Below the pieces are notes generated by a model that made no database searches, was not told the origin of the DNA, and saw only the letters and a list, made by a program, of their open reading frames with translations. A stretch of 64,000 nt of DNA from an uncultured Candidatus Saccharibacteria bacterium (GTDB lineage: Bacteria; Patescibacteriota; Saccharimonadia; Saccharimonadales; AWTP1-31), in NCBI GenBank assembly GCA_964629815.1, contig CAZVTA010000003.1:112721-176720 (forward strand), written 5' to 3'. The translations under genes were made by a program, and so were the position numbers. This document shows positions 3,823-23,578 of this stretch, in pieces. Each line of letters starts with the position of its first letter. Position 1 is the stretch's first letter.

Positions 3823-4010
3823 TTGACATACCAACCACTTTATTGATATTTGTGGTATTACAACTGAGTGTTGGTTGTAGACAATGAAACATAACTCGTA
3901 TTTGGACGCTTGAGTTATGTGGAGTCAGTAGCGTAACCGGGCAACCAAACTTTCTCTGCTATAACGGCTCGAGAGGTTTGGACCCTAACAGGCCAAACCT
4001 CTTTTGTATT
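3823..4010 (+). promoter_or_regulatory. Candidate leader/attenuator: promoter-like TTGACA (3823-3828), hairpin 3890-3919, mutually exclusive antiterminator (3945-3956 with 3971-3981) and terminator (3971-3981 with 3993-4002, then TTTGTATT)
   Basis: Segments CCAAACTTTCTC / GAGAGGTTTGG / CCAAACCTCT read directly. The middle segment can pair with either neighbour. No obvious promoter lies between the terminator and the SD-led ATG at 4083. Confidence 0.4.
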
Positions 4011-4082
4011 AGCTAAATAAATATGCAAAGTGAGCGAGTCTAGTGACTGAGCCTAGCTACGCATATGCCAAAAGGAGATACA

Positions 4083-14561: not shown

Positions 14562-14583
14562 GAAAAACGGCGCAACGCGCCGC
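14562..14583 (-). terminator. Hairpin GCGGCGC-GTT-GCGCCG + TTTTTCT closing the tRNA-Leu(CAG) complex
   Basis: Read on the minus strand directly after the duplicated ..CATCCGCACCA. Confidence 0.6.
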
Positions 14584-14606
14584 TAATTCTGACTTGAGCC
14601 TATTTC

Positions 14607-14746
14607 TGGTGCGGATGAGATGGCTTGTTCAGTTCCATCCGGAATATGAGCAGTGCGAACGAGCCGTTAGGCGAGCTTTAGGGGGAGGGGTACGAAATTT
14701 GGATTCACTCCATATTCGTACCGGAGGGGTTCACCCCTCCTGAATG
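14607..14746 (-). other. tRNA-Leu(CAG) 3'-half mimic with spacer. Hairpin GGAGGGG-TGAA-CCCCTCC is followed by a GGTACGAA/TTCGTACC hairpin. A T-arm-like hairpin GATGG-AACTGAACAAG-CCATC follows, and the mimic ends in T-CATCCGC-ACCA.
   Basis: The last 14 nt are identical to the tRNA 3' end (14747-14760). The pseudo T-stem differs from the real GGAGG/CCTCT by paired changes. Confidence 0.6.
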
Positions 14747-14833
14747 TGGTGCGGATGAGAGGACTTGAACCTCCACGGGGTTGCCCCCACTACGACCTGA
14801 ACGTAGCGCGTCTACCAATTCCGCCACATCCGC
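14747..14833 (-). tRNA. tRNA-Leu(CAG), type II, CCA encoded
   Basis: GCGGATG..CTACG-TTCAGGT-CGTAG..GGAGG-TTCAAGT-CCTCT-CATCCGC-ACCA folded by eye; 87 nt. Confidence 0.95.
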
Positions 14834-14917
14834 ATATGATTTGAATGTTAAAGGTACTTCAGATATGTAGATAGTGGGGTCCCCACAAAATTGATAGATT
14901 TTGAGGGGTAAGGTGTT

Positions 14918-14958
14918 GCGCGTCTACCATTCGCTAGACAGCGAACCGCCACATCCGC
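14918..14958 (-). other. Pseudo 5' fragment of tRNA-Leu(CAG): acceptor 5' strand + D-arm, with the D-loop AAT replaced by a 16-nt hairpin TTCGCT-GTCT-AGCGAA
   Basis: GCGGATGTGGCGG[TTCGCTGTCTAGCGAA]TGGTAGACGCGC versus the real GCGGATGTGGCGGAATTGGTAGACGCGC. A TTGCAG-17-TATTAT promoter-like sequence lies just upstream. Confidence 0.6.
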
Positions 14959-15082
14959 ATGTGATTTGTATTAACAGATGACATAATAGTCTATATGAAA
15001 CGTCACTGCAAATCTCACACAGCGGTCGTTTCGTATGGTATGATATATGCCAGAACTACTAATGCTTTAACTTCGAGGGAAC

Positions 15083-16720
15083 ATGAGTAAAGTTGCACAT
15101 TATCTACAAGAACACTTATTGGGCGAAGTAAGCACATCTGCAGATGTACGACGATTCTTTTCTACCGATGGCGGCGTTTTCACGGTTACACCGTCGCTCG
15201 TGGTGTATCCGCGCAACGAAAACGATGTGCGCAAAACTGCACGGTTCACCTGGCAACTGGCCGAACGTGGCCGCGTTATCCCAATCACTGCTCGTGGTAT
15301 GGGCACCGACCAAGGCGGTGCGGCTATTGGGAGTGGTATCTCGCTGGTCTTTCCAGCCCATATGAACAAGATTCTCGAATTCGACGGCAAAACGGGCGAC
15401 GTAACGATCGAGCCGGGTATTATCTACGGCAAACTACAACAAACGCTTCATACTCATGGTCGTTTTTTGCCACCGTTTCCGTCTAGCGTGGAATATTCTT
15501 CTATCGGTGGGGCGATTGCCAATAATGCGGGTGGGGAAAAGACAGTCAAATATGGTAGTACCCGAAAGTTTGTAAAGAGTTTACGTGTTGTGCTGGCAAA
15601 TGGCGAAGTTATCGAAACCAAGCGTTTAAACAAGCGAGAACTCAGTAAAAAAATGGGCCTTTCGTCGTTCGAGGGCGAAATTTACCGTGCACTCGACGCC
15701 ATGTTCGACGAAAATAAGCCAATTCTCGATACGATGAACCTTAACGTAAGTAAAAACTCTGCCGGCTATGCCTTGCAAGAGGTAAAGGGCAAAGACGGTT
15801 CGTTCGACCTGACTCCATTGTTTGTGGGTTCTCAGGGTACACTTGGTATAGTCACCGAAGCGCTTATTAGTACCGAATTACACAATGCTAACACCACACT
15901 CATTGCAGCCTATTTCGACGATATTCGTGTTGCCGAAGAAGCCGTGCAGCAGCTCTTAAAACTTCCCGAACAACCAAGTGCTATAGAAGTAGTCGACGAA
16001 AACCTGCTGAAGTTTATTGATCAGCATAATCCAAACCAGCTAAAAGGTATCGTTACCAAACCATTCCACAAGCTCATTGTGTTGATAGAATTCGACAACT
16101 TAAACGTGCGTATACAAAAACGCATGGTCAAAAAGGCTGTTAAGATTCTGAATAACTACCAAGTAAAACACCAGGTAGAGACCGACGAAGAAGAAAAAGA
16201 AAAGCTCTGGAAGATTCGTCATAGTGCTGCAGCGGTTATTTCGCACGCCGAAGGTAACCTCAAGGCGCTGCCAATTATCGAAGATGGTATTGTACCGCTC
16301 GAACAATTCCAAGCATATCTGCACGGTGTGTATGAATTGTTTGCGAAGTATAATTTGCAGTCTGCTGTGTGGGGGCATGCCGGAAACGCCAACCTACATA
16401 TGCAGCCATTTCTTGACCTCAGCCAAGTAGGCGACAGACAAAAGGTCTTTAAGCTCCTTGAAGAATACTACACTATGGTTATTAGTATGGGCGGTAGCAC
16501 CAGTGGCGAGCATAGCGATGGCCGGTTGCGCGCACCATTCTTGCCGCGACTATATGGCAAAGAAGTATATGCGCTGTTCCAAAAAACCAAACAGATTTTC
16601 GACCCTTACGGAACACTCAACCCAGGTGTCAAGATAGACGTTACGCTCGACGACATCAAACCACTCTTGCGACACGAATATTCTATGGATCACTTAGCGG
16701 CGCATTTGCCACGGACATAA
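15083..16720 (+). CDS. FAD-binding oxidoreductase (GlcD / D-lactate dehydrogenase family)
   Basis: 545 aa; FAD-binding PCMH-type N-terminal region (..RGMGTDQGGAAIG.., ..GGAIANNAGGEK..). Confidence 0.8.
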   Translation: MSKVAHYLQEHLLGEVSTSADVRRFFSTDGGVFTVTPSLVVYPRNENDVRKTARFTWQLAERGRVIPITARGMGTDQGGAAIGSGISLVFPAHMNKILEFDGKTGDVTIEPGIIYGKLQQTLHTHGRFLPPFPSSVEYSSIGGAIANNAGGEKTVKYGSTRKFVKSLRVVLANGEVIETKRLNKRELSKKMGLSSFEGEIYRALDAMFDENKPILDTMNLNVSKNSAGYALQEVKGKDGSFDLTPLFVGSQGTLGIVTEALISTELHNANTTLIAAYFDDIRVAEEAVQQLLKLPEQPSAIEVVDENLLKFIDQHNPNQLKGIVTKPFHKLIVLIEFDNLNVRIQKRMVKKAVKILNNYQVKHQVETDEEEKEKLWKIRHSAAAVISHAEGNLKALPIIEDGIVPLEQFQAYLHGVYELFAKYNLQSAVWGHAGNANLHMQPFLDLSQVGDRQKVFKLLEEYYTMVISMGGSTSGEHSDGRLRAPFLPRLYGKEVYALFQKTKQIFDPYGTLNPGVKIDVTLDDIKPLLRHEYSMDHLAAHLPRT

Positions 16721-16727
16721 AACTTGT

Positions 16728-17021
16728 ATGATACGGTGGGAAGATCCTGTTACATATGTGGGCATTACTGGTGTGGTGCTGGTGTTGTTTTCTATTTATC
16801 GAACGAGTATTGGTCGCTGGACCAATAAGTCTTTTTGGTACGAGCTCGATGTTGTTTTTGGTGCGTCCATGGTGGCGTTTTATCAGCTGCATGTCGGTGC
16901 GTACGTTACTGTCGTTACCAACATTGCTTATGCTGTGGTTGCGTTTCGTGGCCTTACATCGTTCGCAGAACGATACACGGTCAAAAAGAAACGAACCAGC
17001 CGAAAAAAACCAAAACGCTAA
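16728..17021 (+). CDS. Small membrane protein with basic C-terminal tail
   Basis: 97 aa, 3 predicted TM, KKKRTSRKKPKR tail. Confidence 0.4.
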   Translation: MIRWEDPVTYVGITGVVLVLFSIYRTSIGRWTNKSFWYELDVVFGASMVAFYQLHVGAYVTVVTNIAYAVVAFRGLTSFAERYTVKKKRTSRKKPKR

Positions 17022-17029
17022 CTTATCGT

Positions 17030-17980
17030 TCAGTCAAGTAGCAGAAACTCATCTGCTTTAGTAGGCGCAAGTCCTTCGGGGCTTACGCCAATAGCAAGAA
17101 AATATGCAACATATCGATTCATAAAACGGCCCCACGCAAATAGTACGTCGTCGATTGCCGTGTACTGGCCTTGTTTTAAAACAACGCGTTTTGTGGTCTC
17201 GTCTATTTTACTTTCGTCTGTCACAAAGCCAGAGTGCGAACCTTCACCAACGATGCCACGCTGTTTTAAAAACGAATAGTTTTCTACCGTTGTTGCAAAG
17301 GCGGTCCGCGCTACGGGGCAGCCTACACTTTCTCGCTTTGGTATGCTTCTGTGTACGAGTGCGGTTGCTTCTCTTGTGAGGCTAATAGTATGTAGGCCAG
17401 ACTTGGTGTCTACGACTATCTCGTAGGGTGACAAGACAGCATTACTTGTGTTTTCAAAAAATGATGCATTGTCATACTCGAAGGCCTTGCTGAACGTAAG
17501 TTCAGTGCTGCATATTGGTCCAAAGTCGCGTGCATTAGGTTGGTATCGCCCAATTTGCGCAAGTGCCATACTGCCAAGCATCGAGCCAAACCACCCGGTT
17601 TGATACAGCTTGGCATGGTCGGCAAGACTGAGTGGCTCTTCAAGTAAGCCTTCGCGCAGGCAGAACTTACTTATATCGTTGCCAATTGCCCCTGCCATCA
17701 TTCCGGTAAAATGCCGGTCTGCAAAGCCGTGTTTATATACATCTCTGCCGGAAAATTCAGTGACGCCGTGTTGTTCTGCAAAGGTGTCCTTCGCATCGTC
17801 GCTTATTTCTAGATAGATCTGTGACTCTTTACCAATATCGACAGCATCGCCAAACAGACCGATTCGATGTGGCTTAAGGGCGTCTATATCTGGGACAAGA
17901 CTTGCCCGTGCATGGTGCGTATAAATAGCGGGCGCAACCGTACCATGAAACTCTTTTCGTAACGTGTGCATATCGGACAT
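17030..17980 (-). CDS. Hypothetical protein (orphan)
   Basis: 316-aa ORF with no motif recognised. Checked for tyrosine-recombinase R..HxxR..Y and found none. Confidence 0.55.
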   Translation of the reverse strand: MSDMHTLRKEFHGTVAPAIYTHHARASLVPDIDALKPHRIGLFGDAVDIGKESQIYLEISDDAKDTFAEQHGVTEFSGRDVYKHGFADRHFTGMMAGAIGNDISKFCLREGLLEEPLSLADHAKLYQTGWFGSMLGSMALAQIGRYQPNARDFGPICSTELTFSKAFEYDNASFFENTSNAVLSPYEIVVDTKSGLHTISLTREATALVHRSIPKRESVGCPVARTAFATTVENYSFLKQRGIVGEGSHSGFVTDESKIDETTKRVVLKQGQYTAIDDVLFAWGRFMNRYVAYFLAIGVSPEGLAPTKADEFLLLD

Positions 17981-18102
17981 ACTTAAAAGTAATAATACAA
18001 CAAAATCAACATAAAGTAAATAGATAGAGAAGGCAAGCGTTGAAGAAAGAGTTGCAAAATTTACAGTAATTCAGTAGTATATTGTAGTTCATTTACAGAT
18101 AG

Positions 18103-18189
18103 GCGCGAGTGCTGGAATTGGTAGACAGGCTACGTTGAGGTCGTAGTGTTCGTAAGGACGTGGAGGTTCAAGTCCTCTCTCGCGCACCA
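18103..18189 (+). tRNA. tRNA-Leu(GAG), type II, CCA encoded
   Basis: GCGCGAG..CTACG-TTGAGGT-CGTAG..GGAGG-TTCAAGT-CCTCT-CTCGCGC-ACCA; 87 nt. Confidence 0.95.
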
Positions 18190-18198
18190 AAACAATAT

Positions 18199-18227
18199 GC
18201 CGACCTCGAAGGTCGGCTTGTTGTTTT
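18199..18227 (+). terminator. Intrinsic terminator after tRNA-Leu(GAG)
   Basis: GCCGACC-TCGAA-GGTCGGC followed by TTGTTGTTTT. Confidence 0.7.
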
Positions 18228-18254
18228 GTAGCCGGTGGATTTGAACCGATAGGT

Positions 18255-18339
18255 GAGAAATGCCAGTGGCATTTTGCAAGGAAACCTTCTCTTGAAAACT
18301 TGTTTTCAAAGACGAAGTTTCGGGCCCGCAGAATGTGGG
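18255..18339 (+). ncRNA. 85-nt three-hairpin module, copy B
   Basis: GAGA-AATGCC/AGT/GGCATT-TT-GCAAGG-P2(AAACCTTCTCTTGAAAAC..TTTTCAAAGACGAAGTTTC)-GGG-CCCGCA/GAA/TGTGGG. Lies between ..ATAGGT and CAAGTCC.., which is a T-loop context. Confidence 0.6.
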
Positions 18340-18360
18340 CAAGTCCTCTCTCGCGCACCA
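18340..18360 (+). repeat. 21-nt direct copy of the tRNA-Leu(GAG) 3' end (T-loop CAAGT through ACCA)
   Basis: CAAGTCCTCTCTCGCGCACCA is identical to 18169-18189. Confidence 0.9.
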
Positions 18361-18371
18361 AGCAAAATAGT

Positions 18372-18400
18372 AACGACCGAAAGGTCGTTTTTGATTTTTG
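18372..18400 (+). terminator. Second terminator closing the Leu(GAG) complex
   Basis: AACGACC-GAAA-GGTCGTT followed by TTTGATTTTT. Confidence 0.65.
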
Positions 18401-18405
18401 TACGG

Positions 18406-18433
18406 TTGACAGATTGGTTGGCTGGTATATATT
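18406..18433 (+). promoter_or_regulatory. TTGACA-16-TATATT promoter; ATG at 18440 lies 6 nt after the -10 box (leaderless)
   Basis: Read directly. Confidence 0.55.
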
Positions 18434-18439
18434 GAGGTC

Positions 18440-18691
18440 ATGAAACATAATTTACAGAAGCCAGAAGTTTTGTGTGCACGGAATGTAATTATCTTTGAGT
18501 CGCCATACGCGGATGAGCCTCGATTAGATACGCCAGATGCAGGAAGTATGCTGAGCGAATATCCTCATGTGCCACCAGAAGTAGCCCGCGGTGCCCTTGA
18601 AAGCCTTACACAACTCGCAGATCTTGATATGCGTAGCCCAGAACGAGTTGCTGGGCTGCTTGCAATCGCAGACACTTTATCAGACCGATAA
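18440..18691 (+). CDS. Hypothetical protein (orphan cassette 1, gene 1)
   Basis: 83-aa ORF. Confidence 0.5.
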   Translation: MKHNLQKPEVLCARNVIIFESPYADEPRLDTPDAGSMLSEYPHVPPEVARGALESLTQLADLDMRSPERVAGLLAIADTLSDR

Positions 18692-18694
18692 TGT

Positions 18695-19234
18695 ATGACA
18701 AGCGAACGATATTTGTACGGACCCACAAATGGATTTGTAATTCCAGATAAAGCAGAGGTCAAAGCGCTGCCAAAAGGTATACGAAAATATACTGACAGAA
18801 TTGCGCCTCAAGGAAAGAGATGTCCTGACGGAATGTGGCGATCCGTTCCCGACGATGATTTTGCTTATGACGTTTACCTTACAAATGAAGAAGATGAGCT
18901 GTGGGTGAGACGCGCAACCCCATCGGTATTTCGTATGCAGGTACATACCCCACCGGGATTAAGCGGGGAGATAGAGCGTGTAATTTACAATTCGAGCGCA
19001 GGCAGTGCTGGAGTGTATGAATTTGGTGATTACGGTGCAGCAATCAGTATTGAGTCGGGCAATCCAGAAGAAATTGTTTCGATTCACAAGACAGACGATC
19101 CAGAAGGTTACCAACGTAAATTAAAATTTGTTTCTTGTTTACTGCTCGATAAATTGCTGCAGCGAAATCATTATAGGGAATTCTATCTTTCAAGAGCACT
19201 TGGGGGCGCCATGATTGACAGAGCGGTTGATTAG
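18695..19234 (+). CDS. Hypothetical protein (orphan cassette 1, gene 2)
   Basis: 179-aa ORF, 3-nt gap to the previous gene. Confidence 0.55.
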   Translation: MTSERYLYGPTNGFVIPDKAEVKALPKGIRKYTDRIAPQGKRCPDGMWRSVPDDDFAYDVYLTNEEDELWVRRATPSVFRMQVHTPPGLSGEIERVIYNSSAGSAGVYEFGDYGAAISIESGNPEEIVSIHKTDDPEGYQRKLKFVSCLLLDKLLQRNHYREFYLSRALGGAMIDRAVD

Positions 19235-19249
19235 GTTATATTAAAGGGC

Positions 19250-19555
19250 ATGCAAGAGCAACAGATTTCTCCAGGGGCAGCAACAAGAGCAAGAATAATG
19301 ACAACGGCCGAAGCGTGGCGTGCAACTTTGCACCCAAGCGATGCAGAATCATTGCGAAATCCTGCAGAACTGCTCGCTGCATTTCAGGATCACCAGATTT
19401 TTGCGAGTATGTTGGCCCGCGAGTTTCCTGAATCGATGCCTGGCCCCTACGAGCTATCTACCGAAGATATGGTTGTACTGCAAGGCTTGCGCCGTGCGCT
19501 GCCGTCTGCGGCCGATAGACTGTGGGAACAAGCCTATCCTATAGAAACCGCATAG
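19250..19555 (+). CDS. Hypothetical protein (orphan cassette 1, gene 3)
   Basis: 101 aa. TTGACA (19215-19220)-16-TATATT (19237-19242), ATG 7 nt later. Confidence 0.5.
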   Translation: MQEQQISPGAATRARIMTTAEAWRATLHPSDAESLRNPAELLAAFQDHQIFASMLAREFPESMPGPYELSTEDMVVLQGLRRALPSAADRLWEQAYPIETA

Positions 19556-19558
19556 CAT

Positions 19559-19918
19559 ATGGCACTTATTCGAGTTACTCATTTAGAATGTGGAGACGTA
19601 AAGCTTACTTCTAAAGATGTGAAGCTGTATACGTACGAAGGTAATGCCGAATGCCCGTCGGGCTGATATAGGTTTACGTGTTCAGAATGCGGCAAAATAG
19701 CATTGTATGATGCCGACCCGCAAGCTTTCGATATCTTACGTGCAGCAGGCTGCATAATAGAGGCGGTAAATGCGCCCGAGCATGATAGTAAAGAGGTTGA
19801 TTCAATAACGCTCCAGCAAGGTGTACTGTCTACAGATGAGGCTCTCGACACAATGAGGGCGCTCAATAGTGCGAGCGACCACCAAATTATGGAAATACTG
19901 ACCCGCAGCGTGCGCTAA
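19559..19918 (+). pseudogene. Cys-containing small ORF interrupted by an in-frame TGA (19664-19666); either two ORFs (35 aa + 71 aa) or a disrupted/recoded gene
   Basis: Own translation: MALIRVTHLECGDVKLTSKDVKLYTYEGNAECPSG*YRFTCSECGKIALYDADPQAF...; both parts are in the same frame. Confidence 0.35.
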
Positions 19919-19980
19919 GCCGCATTGTTGCATTTACAGATAAAAAAGGGTAAAATACTGCAGTTGCATACGTGCAAAAT

Positions 19981-20057
19981 GGGTTGTTAGCTCAGTTGGC
20001 TAGAGCATCTCGTTTACACCGAGGGGGTCGGGGGTTCGAGTCCCTCACAACCCACCA
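19981..20057 (+). tRNA. tRNA-Val(TAC), CCA encoded
   Basis: GGGTTGT..TCTCG-TTTACAC-CGAGG-GGGTC-GGGGG-TTCGAGT-CCCTC-ACAACCC-ACCA; 77 nt. Confidence 0.95.
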
Positions 20058-20065
20058 CGAAAACG

Positions 20066-20090
20066 GCCGGTCTTATCGACCGGCTTTTTT
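20066..20090 (+). terminator. Intrinsic terminator after tRNA-Val
   Basis: GCCGGTC-TTATC-GACCGGC followed by TTTTTT. Confidence 0.75.
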
Positions 20091-20134
20091 CGTGCTTCGG
20101 TGCGGTCTTGAATATCCGACCAAAGGGTCGGGGT

Positions 20135-20219
20135 GAGAAATGCCGGTGGCATTTTGCAAGGGAGCCAACTCTTACAAACTGGTTTGTAAAGATGTTGCGA
20201 CGGGCCTGCCAAAGGTAGG
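20135..20219 (+). ncRNA. 85-nt three-hairpin module, copy C
   Basis: GAGA-AATGCC/GGT/GGCATT-TT-GCAAGG-P2(GAGCCAACTCTTACAAAC..GTTTGTAAAGATGTTGCGAC)-GGG-CCTGCC/AAA/GGTAGG. Flanked by GGGTCGGGGT (20125-20134) and TCGAGTCCC.., so it sits inside a pseudo tRNA-Val T-loop. Confidence 0.6.
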
Positions 20220-20241
20220 TCGAGTCCCTCACAACCCACCA
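20220..20241 (+). repeat. 22-nt direct copy of the tRNA-Val 3' end
   Basis: TCGAGTCCCTCACAACCCACCA is identical to 20036-20057. It is followed by a 16-bp perfect hairpin (20241-20276). Confidence 0.9.
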
Positions 20242-20352
20242 AAGGATAAGTCCCATCAAGATGGGACTTATCCTTTGGCTCCGTGTAGTTTTTACAAAGG
20301 TGGTTGTTTGCGCTTCTGCTTTTGCTACAATCGAACACATTGAGGAGGGTAC

Positions 20353-20805
20353 ATGGAACATTCGCCGGAAATGACTTACGGTGCTAGCTCGCTCGGTGCC
20401 GCAAGCTCAGAAGCTCTGCAACAGCAATACCAAGCCGCACTCGGTCGTATAGAAGCGCGAGAAGACGGCGATTACCTAGATGGATACCCACTCCCACCGG
20501 ACAACGACGATGTATGGAAGACGCAGAGAATTGACGCAGACGTAACGCGTTTTATTGAGCCCTCAGTAGGGTTTGAGAGCGTTTGTTGGACTACTGAAAG
20601 GCGCATTTCGATCTTAGAAATTACCAACGCTGTGCAGCGGCAACGTAATATCCAAAGTATTATTAACGGCTGTGGGCCGTTTGATATTACTCCAGAACAG
20701 ACGGTGTTTATTGGCCTAGAGTTGATGCGTCAGGCAAAACCTAGTCGTATGCAAAAATTGGCAGCTTTTGTTGGCCGTATTGTGGAAGGAATTGCAGAAG
20801 CATGA
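20353..20805 (+). CDS. Hypothetical protein (orphan cassette 2, gene 1)
   Basis: 150 aa; TACAAT box and GAGGAGG SD upstream. Confidence 0.55.
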   Translation: MEHSPEMTYGASSLGAASSEALQQQYQAALGRIEAREDGDYLDGYPLPPDNDDVWKTQRIDADVTRFIEPSVGFESVCWTTERRISILEITNAVQRQRNIQSIINGCGPFDITPEQTVFIGLELMRQAKPSRMQKLAAFVGRIVEGIAEA

Positions 20806-20981
20806 CGCACGAGCAGATGGCAGAATCTTGCCCATACAGCGAAGAAGGCATTGCGGCGGTAGCAGCCGTGGTGGAAAAAATATTTGCTGGCCCCAGTCCA
20901 CAATATGTCGAATGGTTGTCGGGTTATTTGCAGCAACGGCACGAAGTAGCAGCACGTATTGGTTCACTGCCATTGTTCTAG
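20802..20981 (+). CDS. Hypothetical 59-aa protein (below the ORF-track cutoff)
   Basis: Own translation: MTHEQMAESCPYSEEGIAAVAAVVEKIFAGPSPQYVEWLSGYLQQRHEVAARIGSLPLF. ATGA overlap with the upstream stop. Confidence 0.45.
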   Translation: MTHEQMAESCPYSEEGIAAVAAVVEKIFAGPSPQYVEWLSGYLQQRHEVAARIGSLPLF

Positions 20982-21021
20982 ACGTGCGTGGTGCTATACT
21001 CGATATGAATGGAGGTATGCT

Positions 21022-21594
21022 ATGGCAGATCGTAGTGCAGAAAGTCCGTTGCTGGGTATAGAGCATGCTTGTGGCGGTTGCGAACAGGTTGACGTGTTAG
21101 AGCGTCAAGCAGGCGAGATATTACGTGCATCTGGCATGGTTGGGTTTGTGAACGAAGAAGGAACGGTTAGAGTGTGGGTCGGTAGAGATTCGATAGTCGA
21201 TCGACCGCGCGAAGAGCGTTTAGCGCAGGCTGGTATGGTTATTGATGCCGAGGTTCTGGGTAGTAACGATTCGCTGCGTTGTGCTGCTGGTTGCCTTTTG
21301 GCCGAAGTTTGCCTGAGCGATGTGTATAGGGATGTCAATGAATCGAATCATCAGTATAGGCAAGGCCATAAGTGGCACCAGATGCCGCTAGAAGATATTG
21401 TTGCCATGCCGCCACTCCTGTCCCCTGACGATGAGGTTACGAGATTTATAGAAGAGGCGTTTGGCGACACGGCAACGGAACATCAGGCTGCCGAAAGGCC
21501 TACGCACGGCACGGTGCATGTTCCACAGGTAGACGGTACAATAGAACGGTTTACCATTCGTCGCAGCGAAATTAATAGTAGTCAGGTACAGTAA
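21022..21594 (+). CDS. Hypothetical protein (orphan cassette 2, gene 3)
   Basis: Start moved to the ATG at 21022, which has a GGAGG SD 6 nt upstream; 190 aa. Confidence 0.55.
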   Translation: MADRSAESPLLGIEHACGGCEQVDVLERQAGEILRASGMVGFVNEEGTVRVWVGRDSIVDRPREERLAQAGMVIDAEVLGSNDSLRCAAGCLLAEVCLSDVYRDVNESNHQYRQGHKWHQMPLEDIVAMPPLLSPDDEVTRFIEEAFGDTATEHQAAERPTHGTVHVPQVDGTIERFTIRRSEINSSQVQ

Positions 21595-21603
21595 CCAATT
21601 ACT

Positions 21604-21846
21604 ATGGATATAGAACAGATACAACCAGCGGACAGTCCAGCGATTGCAAGGCTTCGGTTTACAGACGTAAACGGCAACGTCCAAGAGCGGAGCATACCAA
21701 CCAAGCCCATATTGAATATTGGTGAATGCGCATTAAGGACCGAGTGGCCAGAACCACCAGCCGAAGCGCCTTTGGGCAGGGCGATTATTCGTACCGATAC
21801 ATACCCGGGCTGGGTAACGGTTCCTACGCGGCTACTGTTGAGCTAA
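21604..21846 (+). CDS. Hypothetical protein (orphan cassette 2, gene 4)
   Basis: 80-aa ORF. Confidence 0.45.
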   Translation: MDIEQIQPADSPAIARLRFTDVNGNVQERSIPTKPILNIGECALRTEWPEPPAEAPLGRAIIRTDTYPGWVTVPTRLLLS

Positions 21847-21970
21847 CTCGATAAGGTGGGCAACAAAGTCCCACACTGGGTGTTCAAGCCGTGCGTAATA
21901 ATGACGCTGTTCGCCTTCGGGTGTTTCGACTCGGCGTATCATTCCTAGTCGTGCTAGGCACGCCATCTCT

Positions 21971-22041
21971 TGGTGGCTCCTCCCAGATCGCTTCACCGAA
22001 CTGGTCGTTCGCTCCGCTCACTTTTCCAGTTCTCGTCTGGG
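21971..22041 (-). other. tRNA-Phe 3'-half mimic: intact T-stem CCCAG/CTGGG with a 44-nt hairpin-forming insertion in the T-loop, then AGGAGCC-ACCA
   Basis: Minus strand: CCCAG-ACGAG[AACTGGAAAAGTGAGCGGAGCGAACGACCAGTTCGGTGAAGCGA]T-CTGGG-AGGAGCCACCA. The last 17 nt are identical to 22083-22099. Confidence 0.6.
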
Positions 22042-22048
22042 TACCATT

Positions 22049-22082
22049 AAAAAAGACCCCAGCTTTAGTGGGGTATTTTTAA
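22049..22082 (-). terminator. Terminator directly after tRNA-Phe
   Basis: Minus strand: AAAAATACCCC-ACTAAAGCT-GGGGTCTTTTTT. Confidence 0.7.
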
Positions 22083-22158
22083 TGGTGGCTCCTCCCAGAC
22101 TCGAACTGGGGACACAAGGCTCTTCAGGCCTCTGCTCTACCAACTGAGCTAAAGAGCC
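22083..22158 (-). tRNA. tRNA-Phe(GAA), CCA encoded
   Basis: GGCTCTT-TA-GCTC..GAGGC-CTGAAGA-GCCTT-GTGTC-CCCAG-TTCGAGT-CTGGG-AGGAGCC-ACCA; 76 nt. Confidence 0.95.
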
Positions 22159-22217
22159 ACAACCCGTCTATTTTATGAGAAAAAACACTTTTCGGCAAGG
22201 GTAGGGCGGTTAATAAC

Positions 22218-22349
22218 TTGCAAAAACACATTTGTCGTATACAATAGGCAAAAGTATGAACAGTATTTGTATGGCAAAGAAGACAAAGCGACAGCCCTAG
22301 CCGAAGCGGCCTTTTTTGACATGAAGCCCCGCCTCGGCGGGGTCTTTTT
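22218..22349 (+). ncRNA. Candidate small transcript: TTGCAA-16-TACAAT promoter, about 100 nt, two tandem terminators (22300-22317, 22327-22349)
   Basis: GCCG-AAG-CGGC + CTTTTTT, then CCCCGCC-TC-GGCGGGG + TCTTTTT. Contains only a 14-codon ORF (MNSICMAKKTKRQP). Confidence 0.3.
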
Positions 22350-22421
22350 ATGCTGTATGTCGATAAAAAGATTCATCTAGGGCCAGCACAGACAATGCTA
22401 ACTTTAAATGAACTGTAATAT

Positions 22422-22775
22422 ATGGAAAATAACAGAACTATACCAATTCAACCAGACATTGAGCCACTTGTGCCGTTACTCATGGTAGAGGCTATCCGCG
22501 AATCAGGGCAGTTGGCTGTATCGGGGCGGCCATTGTTTGTGATGGGTGGCGAAAAAGAACGCTATTATAACGACACGGTTATAGAGCTAGACGTGCCGCT
22601 GTACATATCGGCACTGCGTTCGATTCGCATTCCGCTTCTTGGGCACTCGCATCTCGAAAAAGTGTTCATCGGTGAGTACCCAGTGCTTACGGGTATACAC
22701 CAGGTTACGGGCGAAGACTACATGTTTGGCATACGGCCAGAGCTGAACTTCGACTGGTGCGACAACGCGGTCTAA
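22422..22775 (+). CDS. Hypothetical protein
   Basis: 117-aa ORF. Confidence 0.5.
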   Translation: MENNRTIPIQPDIEPLVPLLMVEAIRESGQLAVSGRPLFVMGGEKERYYNDTVIELDVPLYISALRSIRIPLLGHSHLEKVFIGEYPVLTGIHQVTGEDYMFGIRPELNFDWCDNAV

Positions 22776-23107
22776 TACCACTTGGCGCCGTACATAAGCC
22801 CACCAATGATGATCAGCTGCTGTAAGACGAGCCAGCACGCCTGGTAAAATATAATAACCTTTTCTTTATGGACGATTCCGTACCATAACCATACAAGCGT
22901 AAACAGCTGGTAGCCCACCCACGAACTAATGGCTATGCCCTCAGCGGACTTGTCGCGAAAAATCACATAAAGCTGCGGTATCGTTACGATTGGTTCAATG
23001 GCGGCCACAAGGTAAGTGAGCCGGTCTACGAGCAGGGGCTTGGCCTGTTTTTTTACAATGAGGGCTTTGCGGGCTTTGGTGTGTTGGTGTTGCCGAAATT
23101 TTGTCAT
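22772..23107 (-). CDS. PQ-loop / SemiSWEET-like 3-TM protein (paralog of 14230-14529)
   Basis: 111 aa; VTIPQLYVIF PQ motif; aligns along its length with the 99-aa paralog. Confidence 0.6.
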   Translation of the reverse strand: MTKFRQHQHTKARKALIVKKQAKPLLVDRLTYLVAAIEPIVTIPQLYVIFRDKSAEGIAISSWVGYQLFTLVWLWYGIVHKEKVIIFYQACWLVLQQLIIIGGLMYGAKWY

Positions 23108-23184
23108 GCTTATGCTTTAACTTTACTTCATACTAACAAATCTTGAGTTATTGCACAAAATGCCGTATAATCTCAATCTGTTAT

Positions 23185-23306
23185 GCGGGTCTAGCTCAGT
23201 TGTTTAGAGTGAGAGCTGCCTGAGGCAGGTCGCAAGGAAACCTTCTCTTGAAAACTTGTTTTCAAAGACGAAGATTCGGGGTCGCGGAACGTGACCGTCC
23301 TTGCCA
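23185..23306 (+). other. Pseudo 5' half of tRNA-Gly(GCC) (positions 1-24, then anticodon stem/loop CGTCCTTGCCA) interrupted by the 85-nt module
   Basis: GCGGGTCTAGCTCAGTTGTTTAGAG is identical to 23357-23381. TTGAGT-17-TATAAT promoter at 23143-23171. TTTAGAGT (23203-23210) can pair with ACTCTAAA (23321-23328). Confidence 0.6.
23211..23295 (+). ncRNA. 85-nt three-hairpin module, copy E
   Basis: GAGA-GCTGCC/TGA/GGCAGG-TC-GCAAGG-P2 (identical to copy B except 1 nt)-GGG-GTCGCG/GAA/CGTGAC. Confidence 0.6.
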
Positions 23307-23356
23307 GGCCAAGGTTGTCTACTCTAAAATCAAGAGATGTTCGTTTAGCAATATAT

Positions 23357-23433
23357 GCGGGTCTAGCTCAGTTGTTTAGAGCGCGTCCTTGCCAAGGACG
23401 AGGCCAGGGGTTAGAGTCCCCTGACCCGCACCA
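23357..23433 (+). tRNA. tRNA-Gly(GCC), CCA encoded
   Basis: GCGGGTC..CGTCC-TTGCCAA-GGACG-AGGCC-AGGGG-TTAGAGT-CCCCT-GACCCGC-ACCA; 77 nt. Confidence 0.95.
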
Positions 23434-23505
23434 AGAAAAGAGTCTTGTCCGATAGGGCAGGGCTTTTTTCTTGGCTTCGGTTACAGATTCTAACACCTGC
23501 CAAAA

Positions 23506-23541
23506 GAGGCCAGGGTGAATAGTGCCAGTCTTGCACCACCA
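23506..23541 (+). other. Degenerate tRNA-Gly 3'-part mimic ending GCACCACCA
   Basis: GAGGCCAGGG matches 23400-23409 (G + variable loop AGGCC + T-stem AGGG). It then diverges (TGAATAGTGCCAGTCTT) and ends GCACCA+CCA. Followed by the 9-bp hairpin ATGACCCCC/GGGGGTCAT (23549-23572). Confidence 0.45.
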
Positions 23542-23578
23542 AAAATGCATGACCCCCATTTTCGGGGGTCATTTCATG

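Follow-up and report, generated by a model that had tools for sequence, protein, structure and literature searches.

Structured inserts within partial tRNA gene copies as candidate non-autonomous insertion elements of Saccharibacteria

A duplicated tRNA 3′ end is the textbook scar left at the attachment site of an integrative element. The DNA analyzed here, a 64,000-nucleotide stretch from an uncultured Saccharibacteria bacterium (the window), carries several such duplications, each enclosing only about 100-170 nt without genes. The original prediction described five of eight tRNA genes as sharing a single layout, wherein the tRNA is followed by a hairpin, a spacer, a second copy of its own 3′ end through CCA (the mimic) and another hairpin. 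This arrangement raises the question of what the units are and why the mimics are present.

Copies of tRNA ends beside their genes

ARAGORN places eight tRNA genes in the window, at the positions originally given. Direct repeats of the 3′ end, on the same strand as the cognate tRNA and 95 to 165 nt away, are exact downstream of four of them. On the forward strand, the 3′ end of tRNA-Leu(GAG) (18169-18190) recurs at 18340-18361 (21-22 nt, with 22 of 22 identical), and that of tRNA-Val(TAC) (20036-20057) recurs at 20220-20241 (22 of 22). On the reverse strand, the 3′ end of tRNA-Phe(GAA) (22083-22099) recurs at 21971-21987 (17 of 17, or 20 of 21 with one gap), and that of tRNA-Leu(CAG) (14747-14767) at 14607-14627 (19 of 21, with the last 14 nt exact). 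The copy for tRNA-Gly(GCC) (23357-23433, forward) is degenerate, as approximately 30 of 44 aligned columns match between tRNA positions 34-77 and 23498-23538, with CCA extending to 23541. As predicted, the same repeat search of the window found no downstream 3′-end copy for tRNA-Cys, Leu(TAA) or Ala.

Terminator-like hairpins lie both behind each tRNA and behind each mimic in the window, again in agreement with the prediction. They follow tRNA-Leu(GAG) (18199-18217) and its mimic (18372-18389), tRNA-Val (20065-20085) and its mimic (a long palindrome at 20242-20276, recognized by sequence), all on the forward strand. On the reverse strand, they follow tRNA-Phe (22056-22074), tRNA-Leu(CAG) (directly 3′ at 14723-14740, by sequence) and the Leu(CAG) mimic (14566-14584). 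Another hairpin follows the degenerate Gly mimic (23549-23572).

The downstream search with tRNA 3′ ends that had been proposed as a check was run on 77 related loci plus the window. Exact copies of at least 12 nt were present within 400 nt downstream of 48 of 103 tRNAs, versus 0 of 104 in the same search upstream. Furthermore, 5′-end copies lie upstream of 27 of 104 tRNAs, versus 0 of 103 in the downstream control. These differences exclude a chance origin. The 3′-end duplication is therefore real, but it is not the whole pattern because an equivalent 5′-end version also exists.

A structured core inside truncated tRNA copies

Immediately 5′ of the Leu(GAG) and Val mimics is a core of approximately 87 nt with three hairpins (18253-18339, 108 bits with model R1, and 20133-20219, 98.8 bits; both forward). 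A third core (23209-23295, forward, 99.3 bits) is located upstream of tRNA-Gly, after an exact copy of the first 24 nt of that tRNA. The three score 99-108 bits, versus 12 bits or less for the antisense strand; all had been missed in the original prediction. Each core comprises, in order, GTGAGA, hairpin 1, YGCAAGG, a 17-bp hairpin 2, CGGG and hairpin 3. We found 94 copies in the 77 Saccharibacteria/Patescibacteria loci (519 kb), with up to five per 8 kb, and some 90 units from about 50 species carry the core in one common register, with 27 invariant columns. Comparisons with Rfam, phages, plasmids, the literature and known ribozyme families returned no match. The core is the best-defined member of a family of small structured non-coding elements that is spread across Saccharibacteria and had not been described before.

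Covariation supports the structure. In the core alignment, 95.9% of cells are paired, and 18 of 32 pairs have changed on both sides, yielding 304 compensatory cells, a level reached by 0 of 500 shuffles. Sliding the structure by 1-3 columns reduces pairing to 29-48%. The structure is strand-specific (125 G·T versus 5 A·C cells), and 60 of 67 sequences keep one particular G·T pair. Triloops of the C-GAA-G type, which are especially stable in DNA hairpins, cap two of the three hairpins.

The hosts of the cores are truncated tRNA copies. Excising the core leaves a detectable tRNA in just 1 of 86 cases, and an intact copy of the same tRNA always adjoins the interrupted one. In the downstream type, the tRNA is followed by a terminator, a degenerate antisense T-arm, an approximately 10-nt copy of the 5′ side of the T-stem, the core, a mimic running from the 3′ part of the T-loop to CCA, and a terminator. 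The upstream type is its mirror image, consisting of a promoter, an exact 5′ part of the tRNA, the core, an approximately 10-nt continuation with an inverted copy, a promoter and the tRNA. Given these two layouts, the mimic represents the part of the tRNA that lies past the insertion and not an independent decoy gene, so its description as a free-standing 3′-end copy has to be abandoned for that of a flank of a structured insert in a truncated tRNA copy. Likewise, the T-arm pairing noted for the Leu(CAG) and Phe mimics can be seen in their sequences, but it reflects this architecture of T-stem 5′ copy, insert, and T-loop 3′ part to CCA, and is no demonstration of tRNA-like function. The degenerate antisense T-arm copies in the spacers had also been overlooked, as had the mirror-image layouts upstream of tRNA-Gly (23185-23208) and tRNA-Leu(CAG) (14915-14971).

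The Leu(GAG) and Val units of the window, on the forward strand, are of the downstream type. Behind tRNA-Leu(GAG) (18103-18189) is a left arm (18228-18252) with the antisense-T-arm-like GGATTTGAACC, predicted to pair with CAAGTCC of the mimic (helix A), and the mimic is an exact copy of tRNA positions 67-87 (T-loop C56 to CCA; 18340-18360). Behind tRNA-Val (19981-20057), the left arm (20097-20132) combines a degenerate antisense T-arm (GGTCTTGAATATCCGACC), a loop and a 9-nt copy of tRNA positions 45-53 (GGGTCGGGG) into hairpin B. The core there replaces GGT of the T-arm copy, and the mimic is an exact copy of positions 56-77 (T55 to CCA).

The Gly locus carries both layouts, all on the forward strand. 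Upstream, a promoter-like site (23143-23171; TTGAGT, 17-nt spacer, TATAAT) precedes the exact copy of positions 1-24, the core replaces GCG (positions 25-27), and the tRNA copy resumes from position 28 with a GGCC insertion (23296-23314). This last segment forms the hairpin CCTTG-CCAGGC-CAAGG, which is kept in four species, and its TTGCCA may serve the real tRNA-Gly as a −35 box. Downstream, an antisense T-arm remnant (GATTCTAACACCTG; 23486-23499) and the degenerate copy of positions 34-77 (23498-23541), which ends in GCACCACCA, are a decayed unit without a core.

The same slot is also taken by at least four unrelated structured inserts, including those at the Phe and Leu(CAG) loci. Of the five tRNAs for which one 3′-end layout had been proposed, Leu(GAG) and Val have the core next to the mimic, Phe and Leu(CAG) have different inserts, and the Gly downstream unit is decayed. 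Between the terminator and mimic of tRNA-Leu(CAG) (14747-14833, reverse), the insert (14628-14722) reads GAGCTTTAGGGGGAG plus a hairpin on the forward strand, a motif common to locus L031. The partial 5′ copy upstream of this gene (14915-14971, reverse) matches the tRNA exactly at positions 1-13 and nearly so at 14-31, carries 14 inserted nt in the D-loop and also repeats 13 nt of the 5′ leader. At tRNA-Phe (22083-22158, reverse), an antisense copy of the T-arm (22026-22041, reverse, 14 of 16 identical) precedes a short insert (21988-22025, reverse) composed of a T-stem 5′ copy (CCAGTTCG) and GTGAAGCGA, which is related to longer inserts in L090, L044 and L060 but truncated.

Constraint on the units and their tRNA-derived flanks

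About 75% of downstream units have a mimic without mismatch over 21-22 nt, whereas the adjacent terminator copy is mostly unrecognizable. The 40 nt beyond CCA have no similarity in about 35 loci and are exact only in L069, L076 and L008. The Lys(UUU) units of L017, L037 and L080 probably descend from one ancestor, because they have a common change (GGAGTG) beside the core; each mimic matches the tRNA of its own species. Similarly, each of four Gly(GCC) upstream units tracks the acceptor and D-loop differences of its own tRNA. One mimic in L007 differs from its tRNA (A58 to T). The view that mimics are maintained rather than decayed thus fits most downstream units, but not the Gly downstream case.

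These patterns bear on whether the units are passive scars, lacking both mobility and function, that were left by deleted large islands or by neutral template switching at tRNA/terminator palindromes. Duplicated 3′ ends would be expected of such scars, and the sense-antisense-sense layout formally equals a tandem inversion duplication that switches strand at the terminator loop and near position 42. However, neutral processes do not account for one 87-nt core with invariant columns and strong covariation in the same register across so many species, or for mimics that stay exact while neighboring duplicated sequence is randomized. Full-size elements between the repeats were sought in the related loci and none were found at any locus, nor were partial tRNA copies without an insert seen in the 77 loci and the window. 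We consider passive scars highly improbable, and the original view of small gene-free units rather than island remnants is borne out by units of about 130-185 nt that recur in about 50 related species.

Strong purifying constraint is evident from the invariant columns, the conserved G·T pair, the exact mimics and cross-species arrangements such as the Gly upstream unit, and it is equally compatible with a host function and with a selfish element. Each unit could be the gene or trailer for a structured small RNA with a cognate-specific tRNA-derived end (either a 22-nt 3′ tail that finishes in CCA or a 5′ portion that begins at +1) that serves as guide, decoy or processing signal, and with the core as a protein-binding scaffold. 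Possible roles include 3′ or 5′ maturation, RNase III or RNase P entry, titration of tRNA-binding factors and regulation of the neighboring tRNA gene. This is consistent with the strand-specific structure and its conserved G·U pair, with mimics that are bounded by exact mature tRNA ends and co-evolve with the cognate tRNA, and with the four-species conservation of the Gly upstream unit. Upstream units have their own TATAAT promoters, the core is co-oriented with the tRNA in 50 of 52 cases, sense folds better than antisense in 30 of 33 units, and a five-way junction with a single-stranded acceptor-CCA tail is recurrently predicted. Yet in most downstream units a promoter scan predicted no promoter of their own, and a canonical terminator precedes them, which makes RNA-based readings less probable. 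A host RNA is also difficult to reconcile with the unrelated inserts in the same slot, the variable presence among related species, and decayed units (the window Gly-downstream unit and L052). Overall, we judge it unlikely.

Insertion footprints and the origin of the units

Among the 52 cores with two flanks that map to the neighboring tRNA, exactly 3 nt are replaced in 50. The triplet always begins with G (GGT 26, GTT 10, GGC 4, GCA 4, GCG 3, GGA 2, GTG 1), and in most cases the right flank begins with a pyrimidine. Cores usually sit in the T-loop (G52/53-T54-T55), but they also occur at positions 24-27, in the anticodon loop and at the variable-loop/T-stem border. Two antisense cases keep the triplet rule on the other strand. 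Such exact replacement at several tRNA positions resembles an insertion footprint, unlike a designed host RNA. To our knowledge, it has no counterpart in known transposition chemistry.

An RNA-mediated route merits consideration, as cores interrupt the folded tRNA at its loops or junctions. Core RNA would be joined into exposed loops of tRNA or pre-tRNA by ribozyme-like or ligase-mediated chemistry that replaces three nucleotides, then reverse-transcribed and recombined at the tRNA gene, with the flank repeatedly refreshed from mature tRNA. In agreement with this route, identity in most units stops exactly where the mature tRNA does, at +1 and at CCA. In the three youngest units, it continues as far as the terminator U-tract extends, which is where the primary transcript ends. 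The terminal CCA is not diagnostic because it is genome-encoded here. The strand-specific, G·U-rich structure, the L007 substitution, and the short inner flank (about 10 nt) followed by an inverted copy, as from truncated snap-back cDNA, also agree. By contrast, antisense arms that copy the uninterrupted T-arm would not be expected from simple snap-back on a chimeric cDNA, the C-GAA-G-type triloops would rather suit DNA, no reverse transcriptase is present in the window or near the elements, and a ribozyme match is lacking. We assign this route a low probability.

The core is also found outside tRNA copies. In core-in-core insertions, GGT of CGG|GGT|CGCGG is replaced with no duplication (one further case is in L090), and a core occupies a terminator loop in L031 and a non-tRNA hairpin in L053. 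These placements, which also speak against a host RNA, together with occurrence at at least 12 tRNA species, lead us to infer that the core is mobile. Core similarity groups neither by tRNA type nor by genome, and the tandem units in L041, L029 and L007 are a further sign of mobility. In a between-species comparison, the Val site is occupied in the window but vacant in L090, a species with an almost identical left arm in its tRNA-Leu(GAG) unit. Among the 60 window ORFs scanned, none matched integrase, transposase, reverse-transcriptase or HUH-endonuclease families, and no protein family recurs beside cores in the related loci. The argument for mobility is therefore distributional.

On balance, we lean toward the units being non-autonomous insertion elements that colonize tRNA-gene hairpins, with the window carrying members of a Saccharibacteria-wide family. 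A cell would not survive plain insertion into an essential tRNA gene present in a single copy, and we hypothesize that insertions persist only where a partial sense-antisense-sense duplication accompanies them and preserves or restores an intact gene. Concerted evolution or selection would then hold the outer flank (the 5′ end from +1 or the 3′ end to CCA) identical to the functional tRNA. The antisense arm would be held complementary to the interrupted T-arm, and the core would therefore project as a branch from a T-arm-like duplex.

That duplex could alternatively be a recombination substrate. Miniature integrative elements might move as folded single-stranded DNA, in which the antisense arm and mimic form a T-arm-like duplex that imitates the double-stranded T-arm of the tRNA gene, and a host tyrosine recombinase carries out strand exchange within the T-loop. 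Since each unit would bring its own tRNA 3′ end and terminator, the tRNA would be regenerated and attL/attR-like repeats would result. However, bare 87-nt nested cores lack arms, the targets include several non-equivalent tRNA positions, both sides of genes and non-tRNA sites, and a different tRNA-specific arm would be needed for each of at least 12 tRNAs. Moreover, tyrosine recombinases leave a conserved overlap sequence rather than a 3-nt replacement, and no recombinase is linked to the units. We accordingly rate this mechanism as rather improbable, even though it would explain direct repeats from T-loop to CCA, as at tRNA-borne islands, and terminators beside the two repeats that are mostly unrelated, as if one had arrived with the element. 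The tandem units, the GAA-type triloops, the strand-specific folding, and the inverted T-arm halves separated by about 90 nt of structured DNA are likewise in its favor, and in these respects the units would be comparable to integron attC cassettes and to the XerCD-mediated integration of CTX phage.

Partial tRNA copies and a conserved core element

ARAGORN identifies eight tRNA genes in the window, with the same coordinates as those first reported. Repeat searches and local alignments bear out the original observation that the 3' end of five of these genes recurs in a second copy downstream on the same strand; this copy, here called the mimic, extends from the 3' part of the T-loop to CCA. 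The copies match their tRNAs at 22 of 22 nucleotides for Leu(GAG) (18340-18361), 22 of 22 for Val(TAC) (20220-20241), and 17 of 17 for Phe(GAA) (21971-21987). The copy of Leu(CAG) (14607-14627) matches at 19 of 21 positions, with the last 14 exact, and that of Gly(GCC) (23498-23541) is degenerate. Terminator-like hairpins are indeed located 3' of both the tRNA and the mimic, and tRNA-Cys, Leu(TAA), and Ala lack a 3'-end copy, as had also been claimed. A chance origin is excluded by the presence of exact repeats of 21 to 22 nucleotides within 200 nucleotides. When the window and 77 related Saccharibacteria or Patescibacteria loci (designated by L numbers such as L031) were examined together, exact 3'-end copies of at least 12 nucleotides were found no more than 400 nucleotides downstream of 48 of 103 tRNAs, compared to 0 of 104 in the upstream control. 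Likewise, 5'-end copies are present upstream of 27 of 104 tRNAs, compared to 0 of 103 in the downstream control. A partial 5' copy of tRNA-Leu(CAG) (14915-14971) is located upstream of that tRNA, and the window spacers also carry degenerate antisense copies of T-arms. The tRNA-Leu(GAG) gene itself (18103-18189) is absent from the whole-window Rfam list at the gathering threshold and scores 48.9 bits in a regional search; its missing entry is a filter effect, and the gene is not defective.

The mimics had been proposed to represent maintained structure rather than a passive scar. Maintenance is supported in part, but the object differs from, and is larger than, the one described. A core of approximately 87 nucleotides, which had been overlooked, lies directly 5' of the Leu(GAG) mimic (18253-18339) and directly 5' of the Val mimic (20133-20219), and a third copy (23209-23295) is located upstream of tRNA-Gly. 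Immediately 5' of the latter, tRNA-Gly positions 1-24 are copied exactly, and on its other side the tRNA sequence continues from position 28. Our covariance model of the core (R1) scores these three copies at 99 to 108 bits in the sense orientation and at no more than 12 bits in the antisense orientation, and it finds no further core copies in the window.

An exact-pattern scan over one genome per prokaryotic species returned 94 loci. The complete element is present in approximately 72 of these, nearly all labelled Saccharibacteria or Patescibacteria, and the remaining loci are chance matches within coding sequences of other phyla. In 519 kb of related loci, the covariance model recovers 94 copies, with a maximum of five per 8 kb. 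About half of the sampled Saccharibacteria tRNA genes are flanked by units, each consisting of a partial tRNA copy plus a core or another insert. Because these genomes are smaller than 1 Mb and include very little non-coding DNA, either the spread of the units must be driven or their upkeep must be paid for.

The alignment of 69 core copies contains 27 invariant and 25 nearly invariant columns. A three-hairpin structure is paired in 95.9% of cells, with changes on both sides in 18 of 32 pairs and 304 compensatory cells. None of 500 shuffles reached these values, and structures slid by one to three columns are only 29 to 48% paired. Furthermore, the fold is read on one strand only: cells with G·T (125) far exceed those with A·C (5), and 60 of 67 sequences keep one particular G·T pair. 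Within hairpin 2 (columns 36-37/74-75 of the core alignment A3), 24 of 67 sequences have tandem G·A/A·G in place of two adjacent A-U pairs. An identical tandem G·A occurs in the flank hairpin of the Lys(UUU) units of loci L017, L037, and L080, and this feature may be a protein-recognition or kink motif.

Rfam 15 includes no family for the core or the other inserts, whether the region is searched up to E = 5 or 16 loci at the gathering score, and the only matches are to tRNA, tmRNA, and the c-di-GMP-II riboswitch. We thus rejected known structured RNAs represented by Rfam covariance models (ribozymes, riboswitches, and guide-RNA scaffolds) as identities for the core, as well as a group I intron, which would span hundreds of nucleotides rather than 87. 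A hammerhead or HDV-like ribozyme, suggested by a GUGAGA motif and a 5' G, was likewise rejected, since the motifs misfit by eye and there is no model match. The riboswitch match is a cyclic-di-GMP-II aptamer at 3868-3951 (+) with a score of 68 bits (gathering score 53.5), and the 973-amino-acid ORF downstream of it (4065-6986) lacks a Pfam match.

Unit architecture and insertion junctions

Downstream-type units are found at Lys, Leu, Val, Met, Glu, Gln, Ser, Arg, and Pro tRNAs. The intact tRNA and its intrinsic terminator are followed by an arm resembling an antisense T-arm, a short loop, and an 8- to 12-nucleotide copy of the variable loop and the 5' strand of the T-stem. The core comes next, followed by an exact tRNA copy from T-loop position 55/56 to CCA and by a second hairpin. 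Upstream-type units occur at Gly, Pro, Gln, Trp, Ser, Arg, Leu, Phe, and Glu tRNAs and begin with a TATAAT-type promoter and an exact tRNA copy running from +1 to position 10, 24, 36, or approximately 52. On the 3' side of the core, 8 to 11 nucleotides continue the tRNA, usually with an inverted copy spanning the insertion point, and a second promoter-like stretch then precedes the intact tRNA.

Where both flanks of the core can be placed on the neighboring tRNA, exactly three tRNA nucleotides are missing at the core in 50 of 52 cases. The replaced triplets always begin with G (GGT 26, GTT 10, GGC 4, GCA 4, GCG 3, GGA 2, GTG 1), and the right flank of the core mostly begins with a pyrimidine. 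The core is on the strand of the tRNA in 50 of the 52 cases, and the two antisense cases keep the triplet rule on the other strand. The interrupted tRNA copies are always truncated: of 86 constructs with the core deleted and the triplet restored, just one yields an ARAGORN tRNA that spans the junction, and an intron within a complete tRNA was rejected on this basis. These data show that a conserved, strand-specifically structured 87-nucleotide element replaces G-N-N in truncated tRNA copies beside intact genes, and that the mimic is the outer flank of such a core insertion. A derivative of a MITE or DDE transposon was rejected because the two ends of the core (GTGAGA... and ...GTGAC/GGTAGG) do not form inverted repeats and the 3-nucleotide replacements carry no junction duplication.

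Minimum-energy folds of the 157-nucleotide downstream units return one recurrent structure. The left arm is predicted to pair with the first 8 to 10 nucleotides of the mimic, forming a helix that closes a junction of the flank hairpin and the three core hairpins and leaves the 3' strand of the acceptor stem and CCA as a tail. The sense strand is the more stable in 30 of 33 of these units.

On balance, we slightly favor a reading of the core and its sister inserts as non-autonomous insertion elements whose targets are G-N-N|Y sites in the loops of hairpins, chiefly the T-loop. Simple insertion of the core would be tolerated in non-essential targets. At single-copy essential tRNAs, the only events seen would be those in which a partial sense-antisense-sense duplication preserves an intact gene, with the outer flank then kept matched to the functional tRNA. 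The folding strand of the core could act as RNA, as suggested by G·U pairs, a loop of the CUUG type, and co-orientation with transcription, or as single-stranded DNA, as suggested by C-GAA-G and C-NGT-G triloops, which are unusually stable in DNA, and by the sense strand being the lagging-strand template for co-directional genes. Tandem inversion duplication by replication template switching would leave a sense-antisense-sense triplication with junctions at quasi-palindromes and no foreign sequence. Such an order, with a turnaround at the terminator, is present in the units; however, they invariably contain a conserved foreign insert, and only part of the antisense arm is specific for the tRNA. 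The units could also be passive island remnants or neutral replication scars, to which their layout is formally similar. This is very improbable given the conserved foreign insert and the differential conservation of unit parts.

Proposed mobility of the inserts and upkeep of the mimics

Several observations point to the core as an insertion element. Cores lie within cores in six loci (L090, L001, L009, L027, L030, and L059), where the nested copy, at the foot of hairpin 3, takes the place of GGT in CGG|GGT|CGCGG without flank duplication. In locus L031, a core occupies the loop of a terminator hairpin, and in locus L053 (5010-5190) a core flanked by a direct repeat of approximately 30 nucleotides sits in a hairpin loop of non-tRNA sequence that matches no Rfam family. 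The same tRNA carries cores of different sequence variants in different species, and the closest relative of a core is usually found at another tRNA in another genome. Nearest-neighbor analysis of cores is uninformative regarding vertical descent versus transposition, with few-state variable positions and one to three cores per genome. Units occur in tandem in two loci (L041 and L029) and on both sides of one tRNA in two others (L007 and L020). The tRNA-Val gene of the window carries a unit; in locus L090, which is related to the window species as judged from the nearly identical left arms of their tRNA-Leu(GAG) units, tRNA-Phe follows tRNA-Val 21 nucleotides later. An exact protein look-up for near-identical strains gave no record for one protein and a single 3.4-kb contig for the other. 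The slot of the core is also taken by at least four other structured inserts of unrelated sequence, among them the Phe and Leu(CAG) inserts of the window.

A second conserved motif, GAGCTTTAGGGGGAG plus a hairpin, is common to locus L031 (4268-4321) and the window (14673-14722, +). In the window, it is located between tRNA-Leu(CAG) and the mimic, antisense to the tRNA, and in locus L031 it is followed by the 87-nucleotide core inserted in the loop of the adjoining terminator hairpin. In locus L058 (approximately 6100-6490), a core and an entire tRNA-Leu(CAA) lie between the 5' and 3' fragments of another, older tRNA-Leu with the acceptor GCCGCAG/CTGCGGC, as if a tRNA-plus-element cassette had replaced the middle of the resident tRNA-Leu gene. 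The tRNA-Leu(CAG) gene and the gene for a FAD-linked oxidase are divergent in the window (14747-16720) and in locus L086 and co-directional in locus L076, and the order of Leu(CAG), Leu(GAG), Val, and Phe varies among related species (the window, L076, L086, and L032). Thus, tRNA-plus-element units coincide with local rearrangements.

No enzyme linked to these units was found. Pfam scans of 60 window ORFs revealed no integrase, recombinase, transposase, HUH-endonuclease, or reverse-transcriptase family, and all-against-all clustering of 736 ORFs from 75 loci produced housekeeping clusters only, with no protein family recurring beside cores. The elements are therefore non-autonomous. Relatives of the IS200/IS605 palindrome elements and TnpB/IscB guide RNAs were rejected because left flanks vary (...GG, ...GA, ...AG) where a fixed target tetranucleotide would be expected, and because neither TnpA nor TnpB was hit in the window or as a recurrent neighbor. 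A phage or plasmid origin was rejected as well, since a pattern scan of viral contigs and blastn searches of phage and plasmid collections found nothing similar to the core. The window is otherwise ordinary housekeeping chromosome (UvrC, LigA, LeuRS, RNase III, TrmD, and others). Between 18440 and 22775, small ORFs of 71 to 211 amino acids without Pfam matches fill the DNA between tRNA genes, which makes this stretch an orphan-gene island with tRNAs and elements interspersed. In the leucyl-tRNA synthetase (42197-45091, +), the editing domain is followed by an inserted NUDIX domain at residues 377-502.

The 21- to 22-nucleotide mimic is exact in approximately three-quarters of downstream units. 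Only three loci (L069, L076, and L008) show identity over the 40 nucleotides past CCA; this stretch is recognizably related in approximately five (among them L034, with compensatory stem changes beyond CCA) and unrelated in approximately 35. Identity thus ends at the mature 3' end, and in upstream units it begins at +1. The Lys(UUU) units of L017, L037, and L080 share GGAGTG beside the core where the tRNA has GTCGTG, which argues for common ancestry of the three. Their mimics differ from each other at three to five positions, yet each agrees with the tRNA of its own locus, apart from one mismatch in L037. Likewise, each of four Gly(GCC) upstream units tracks the acceptor-stem and D-loop differences of its own tRNA, and the anticodon-stem part of these copies decays. 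Exact mimics beside diverged sequence require short-tract gene conversion, repeated re-copying, or selection; neutral decay cannot produce this pattern. The antisense arm was examined by an ungapped placement test, since with gaps the controls score just as high. Only the T-stem/variable part, which pairs with the inner flank, is tRNA-specific, with an identity of 0.48 versus 0.23 to 0.30 in controls. The acceptor part, which faces the 3'-terminal 12 nucleotides of the tRNA, is at chance level (0.31 versus 0.27), and a primer-binding site was rejected on this basis.

Co-evolution of this kind, together with conservation and the promoters of upstream units, would also be expected of a small RNA with a host function and a cognate-tRNA-specific end. 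We consider such a role unlikely, given that unrelated inserts are interchangeable, cores nest, some units have decayed, and terminators precede the downstream units. Mobility could also be RNA-mediated, with the core joined into tRNA loops and then reverse transcribed. The short inner flanks and an identity bounded by mature or primary-transcript ends fit this scheme, but neither a reverse transcriptase nor a ribozyme match was found, and we regard it as improbable. The tRNA-Val mimic of locus L007 (3147-3168) differs from its tRNA only at T-loop position A58, which is T in the mimic. Where present, m1A58 causes reverse-transcriptase misincorporation, and this single case is only a hint of an RNA-mediated origin.

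Miniature integrative elements with a folded single-strand att site might also be considered, on account of the T-loop-to-CCA repeats, the unrelated terminators, and the inverted T-arm halves approximately 90 nucleotides apart. The several target positions, the bare nested cores, and the 3-nucleotide replacement make this explanation quite doubtful.

A bolder version of the insertion-element reading has a substantial chance of being right, although it is less likely than not: the core and its sister inserts would form a novel type of mobile nucleic acid, which enters tRNA hairpins in their folded form by a categorically new mechanism. The invader would be RNA or folded single-stranded DNA and would need no element-encoded protein. 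Its antisense arm would pair with the T-arm to guide replacement of exactly three nucleotides, and the mimic would be continually re-copied from the functional tRNA, such that each unit matches its cognate tRNA. If so, these ultra-small bacteria would harbor a tRNA-templated, self-renewing element that acts on the translation apparatus as a parasite or a domesticated regulator.

Relation to known systems

The exact 3-nucleotide replacement fits no class tested (integrase islands, MITE-type transposons, IS200/IS605 relatives, or introns), and a new insertion or recombination mechanism may be directly discoverable from these units. Mimics that co-evolve with their cognate tRNAs provide a natural system for the study of concerted evolution over tracts of 20 to 50 nucleotides. 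On the practical side, assemblies break at tRNA loci because of the units, which may also confuse tRNA annotation, and the cores can be annotated with the covariance model built here.

Our search of full-text literature found no description of these units. The nearest paper (2026, PMC13011429) deals with Patescibacteria tRNA genes that are complete and carry group I introns at position 35/36. The host phylum is shared, as is the occurrence of tRNA-gene insertions overlooked by annotation tools, but the core matches no intron model and sits in truncated copies.

Integrases of the tyrosine family place islands and prophages in tRNA genes, leaving tRNA 3'-end repeats as attL/attR, with sublocations in the T-loop and anticodon loop. 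Our units resemble these in their direct repeats from T-loop to CCA (14 to 22 nucleotides exact in the window and 21 to 22 in most related loci), in the regeneration of a functional tRNA beside a displaced fragment, and in tandem accretion at one tRNA. However, the units are only 130 to 185 bp, and the 95 to 185 nucleotides between repeats are ORF-free, with neither an integrase nor cargo or any other gene. They also differ in their 5'-side versions, their several insertion positions, their 87-nucleotide core that replaces exactly 3 nucleotides at the junction, and their lack of matches to viral or plasmid DNA in the collections searched.

Mobile non-canonical tRNA introns in Thermoproteales are related short introns at many tRNA positions. 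The cores are likewise related short elements at non-canonical positions (approximately 25/26, 37-39, 45-49, and 53-56) of many tRNAs. In contrast, the genes interrupted by the archaeal introns are complete and functional, and the splicing endonuclease excises the introns, whereas the cores occupy truncated, almost never restorable copies in a bacterial host, always alongside an intact gene.

Recombination sites formed by single-stranded DNA hairpins include integron attC sites and the attP(+) hairpin of CTX phage, which is used by XerCD. As with these sites, inverted half-sites approximately 90 nucleotides apart fold on one strand, structure is more conserved than sequence, tandem arrays occur, and the enzyme is supplied by the host. 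However, the target is the tRNA T-arm rather than attI or dif, the integron integrase and phage are absent, and the bulged segment of the unit is highly conserved in sequence.

Finally, REP/REPIN sequences, Rickettsia palindromic elements, Correia elements, and MITEs are small, non-autonomous, structured bacterial repeats. The units share with them their short, non-coding, hairpin-forming, and multi-copy nature, persistence in reduced genomes, possible occurrence inside RNA genes, and promoters or terminators that they carry or abut. The core further resembles REP sequences in having a conserved 5' GT(G/A)-type motif followed by a hairpin. REP/REPIN elements mobilized by a RAYT (Y1 HUH) transposase would have a conserved 5' tetranucleotide plus a palindrome and a cognate RAYT gene in the genome; the core has a 5' GTGA-plus-hairpin motif, and no Y1 transposase was found among the window ORFs scanned. 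Compared to all of these repeats, the core lacks terminal inverted repeats and target-site duplications, showing a 3-nucleotide replacement instead. It also has a strict tie to partial tRNA copies, a strand-specific G·T-rich fold, and no cognate transposase among the window ORFs or neighboring genes. When tested, the core family does not qualify as an integrase island, a MITE, an intron, a known RNA family, or an IS200/605 relative, and we conservatively place the units within the broad kind of small non-autonomous structured insertion elements.
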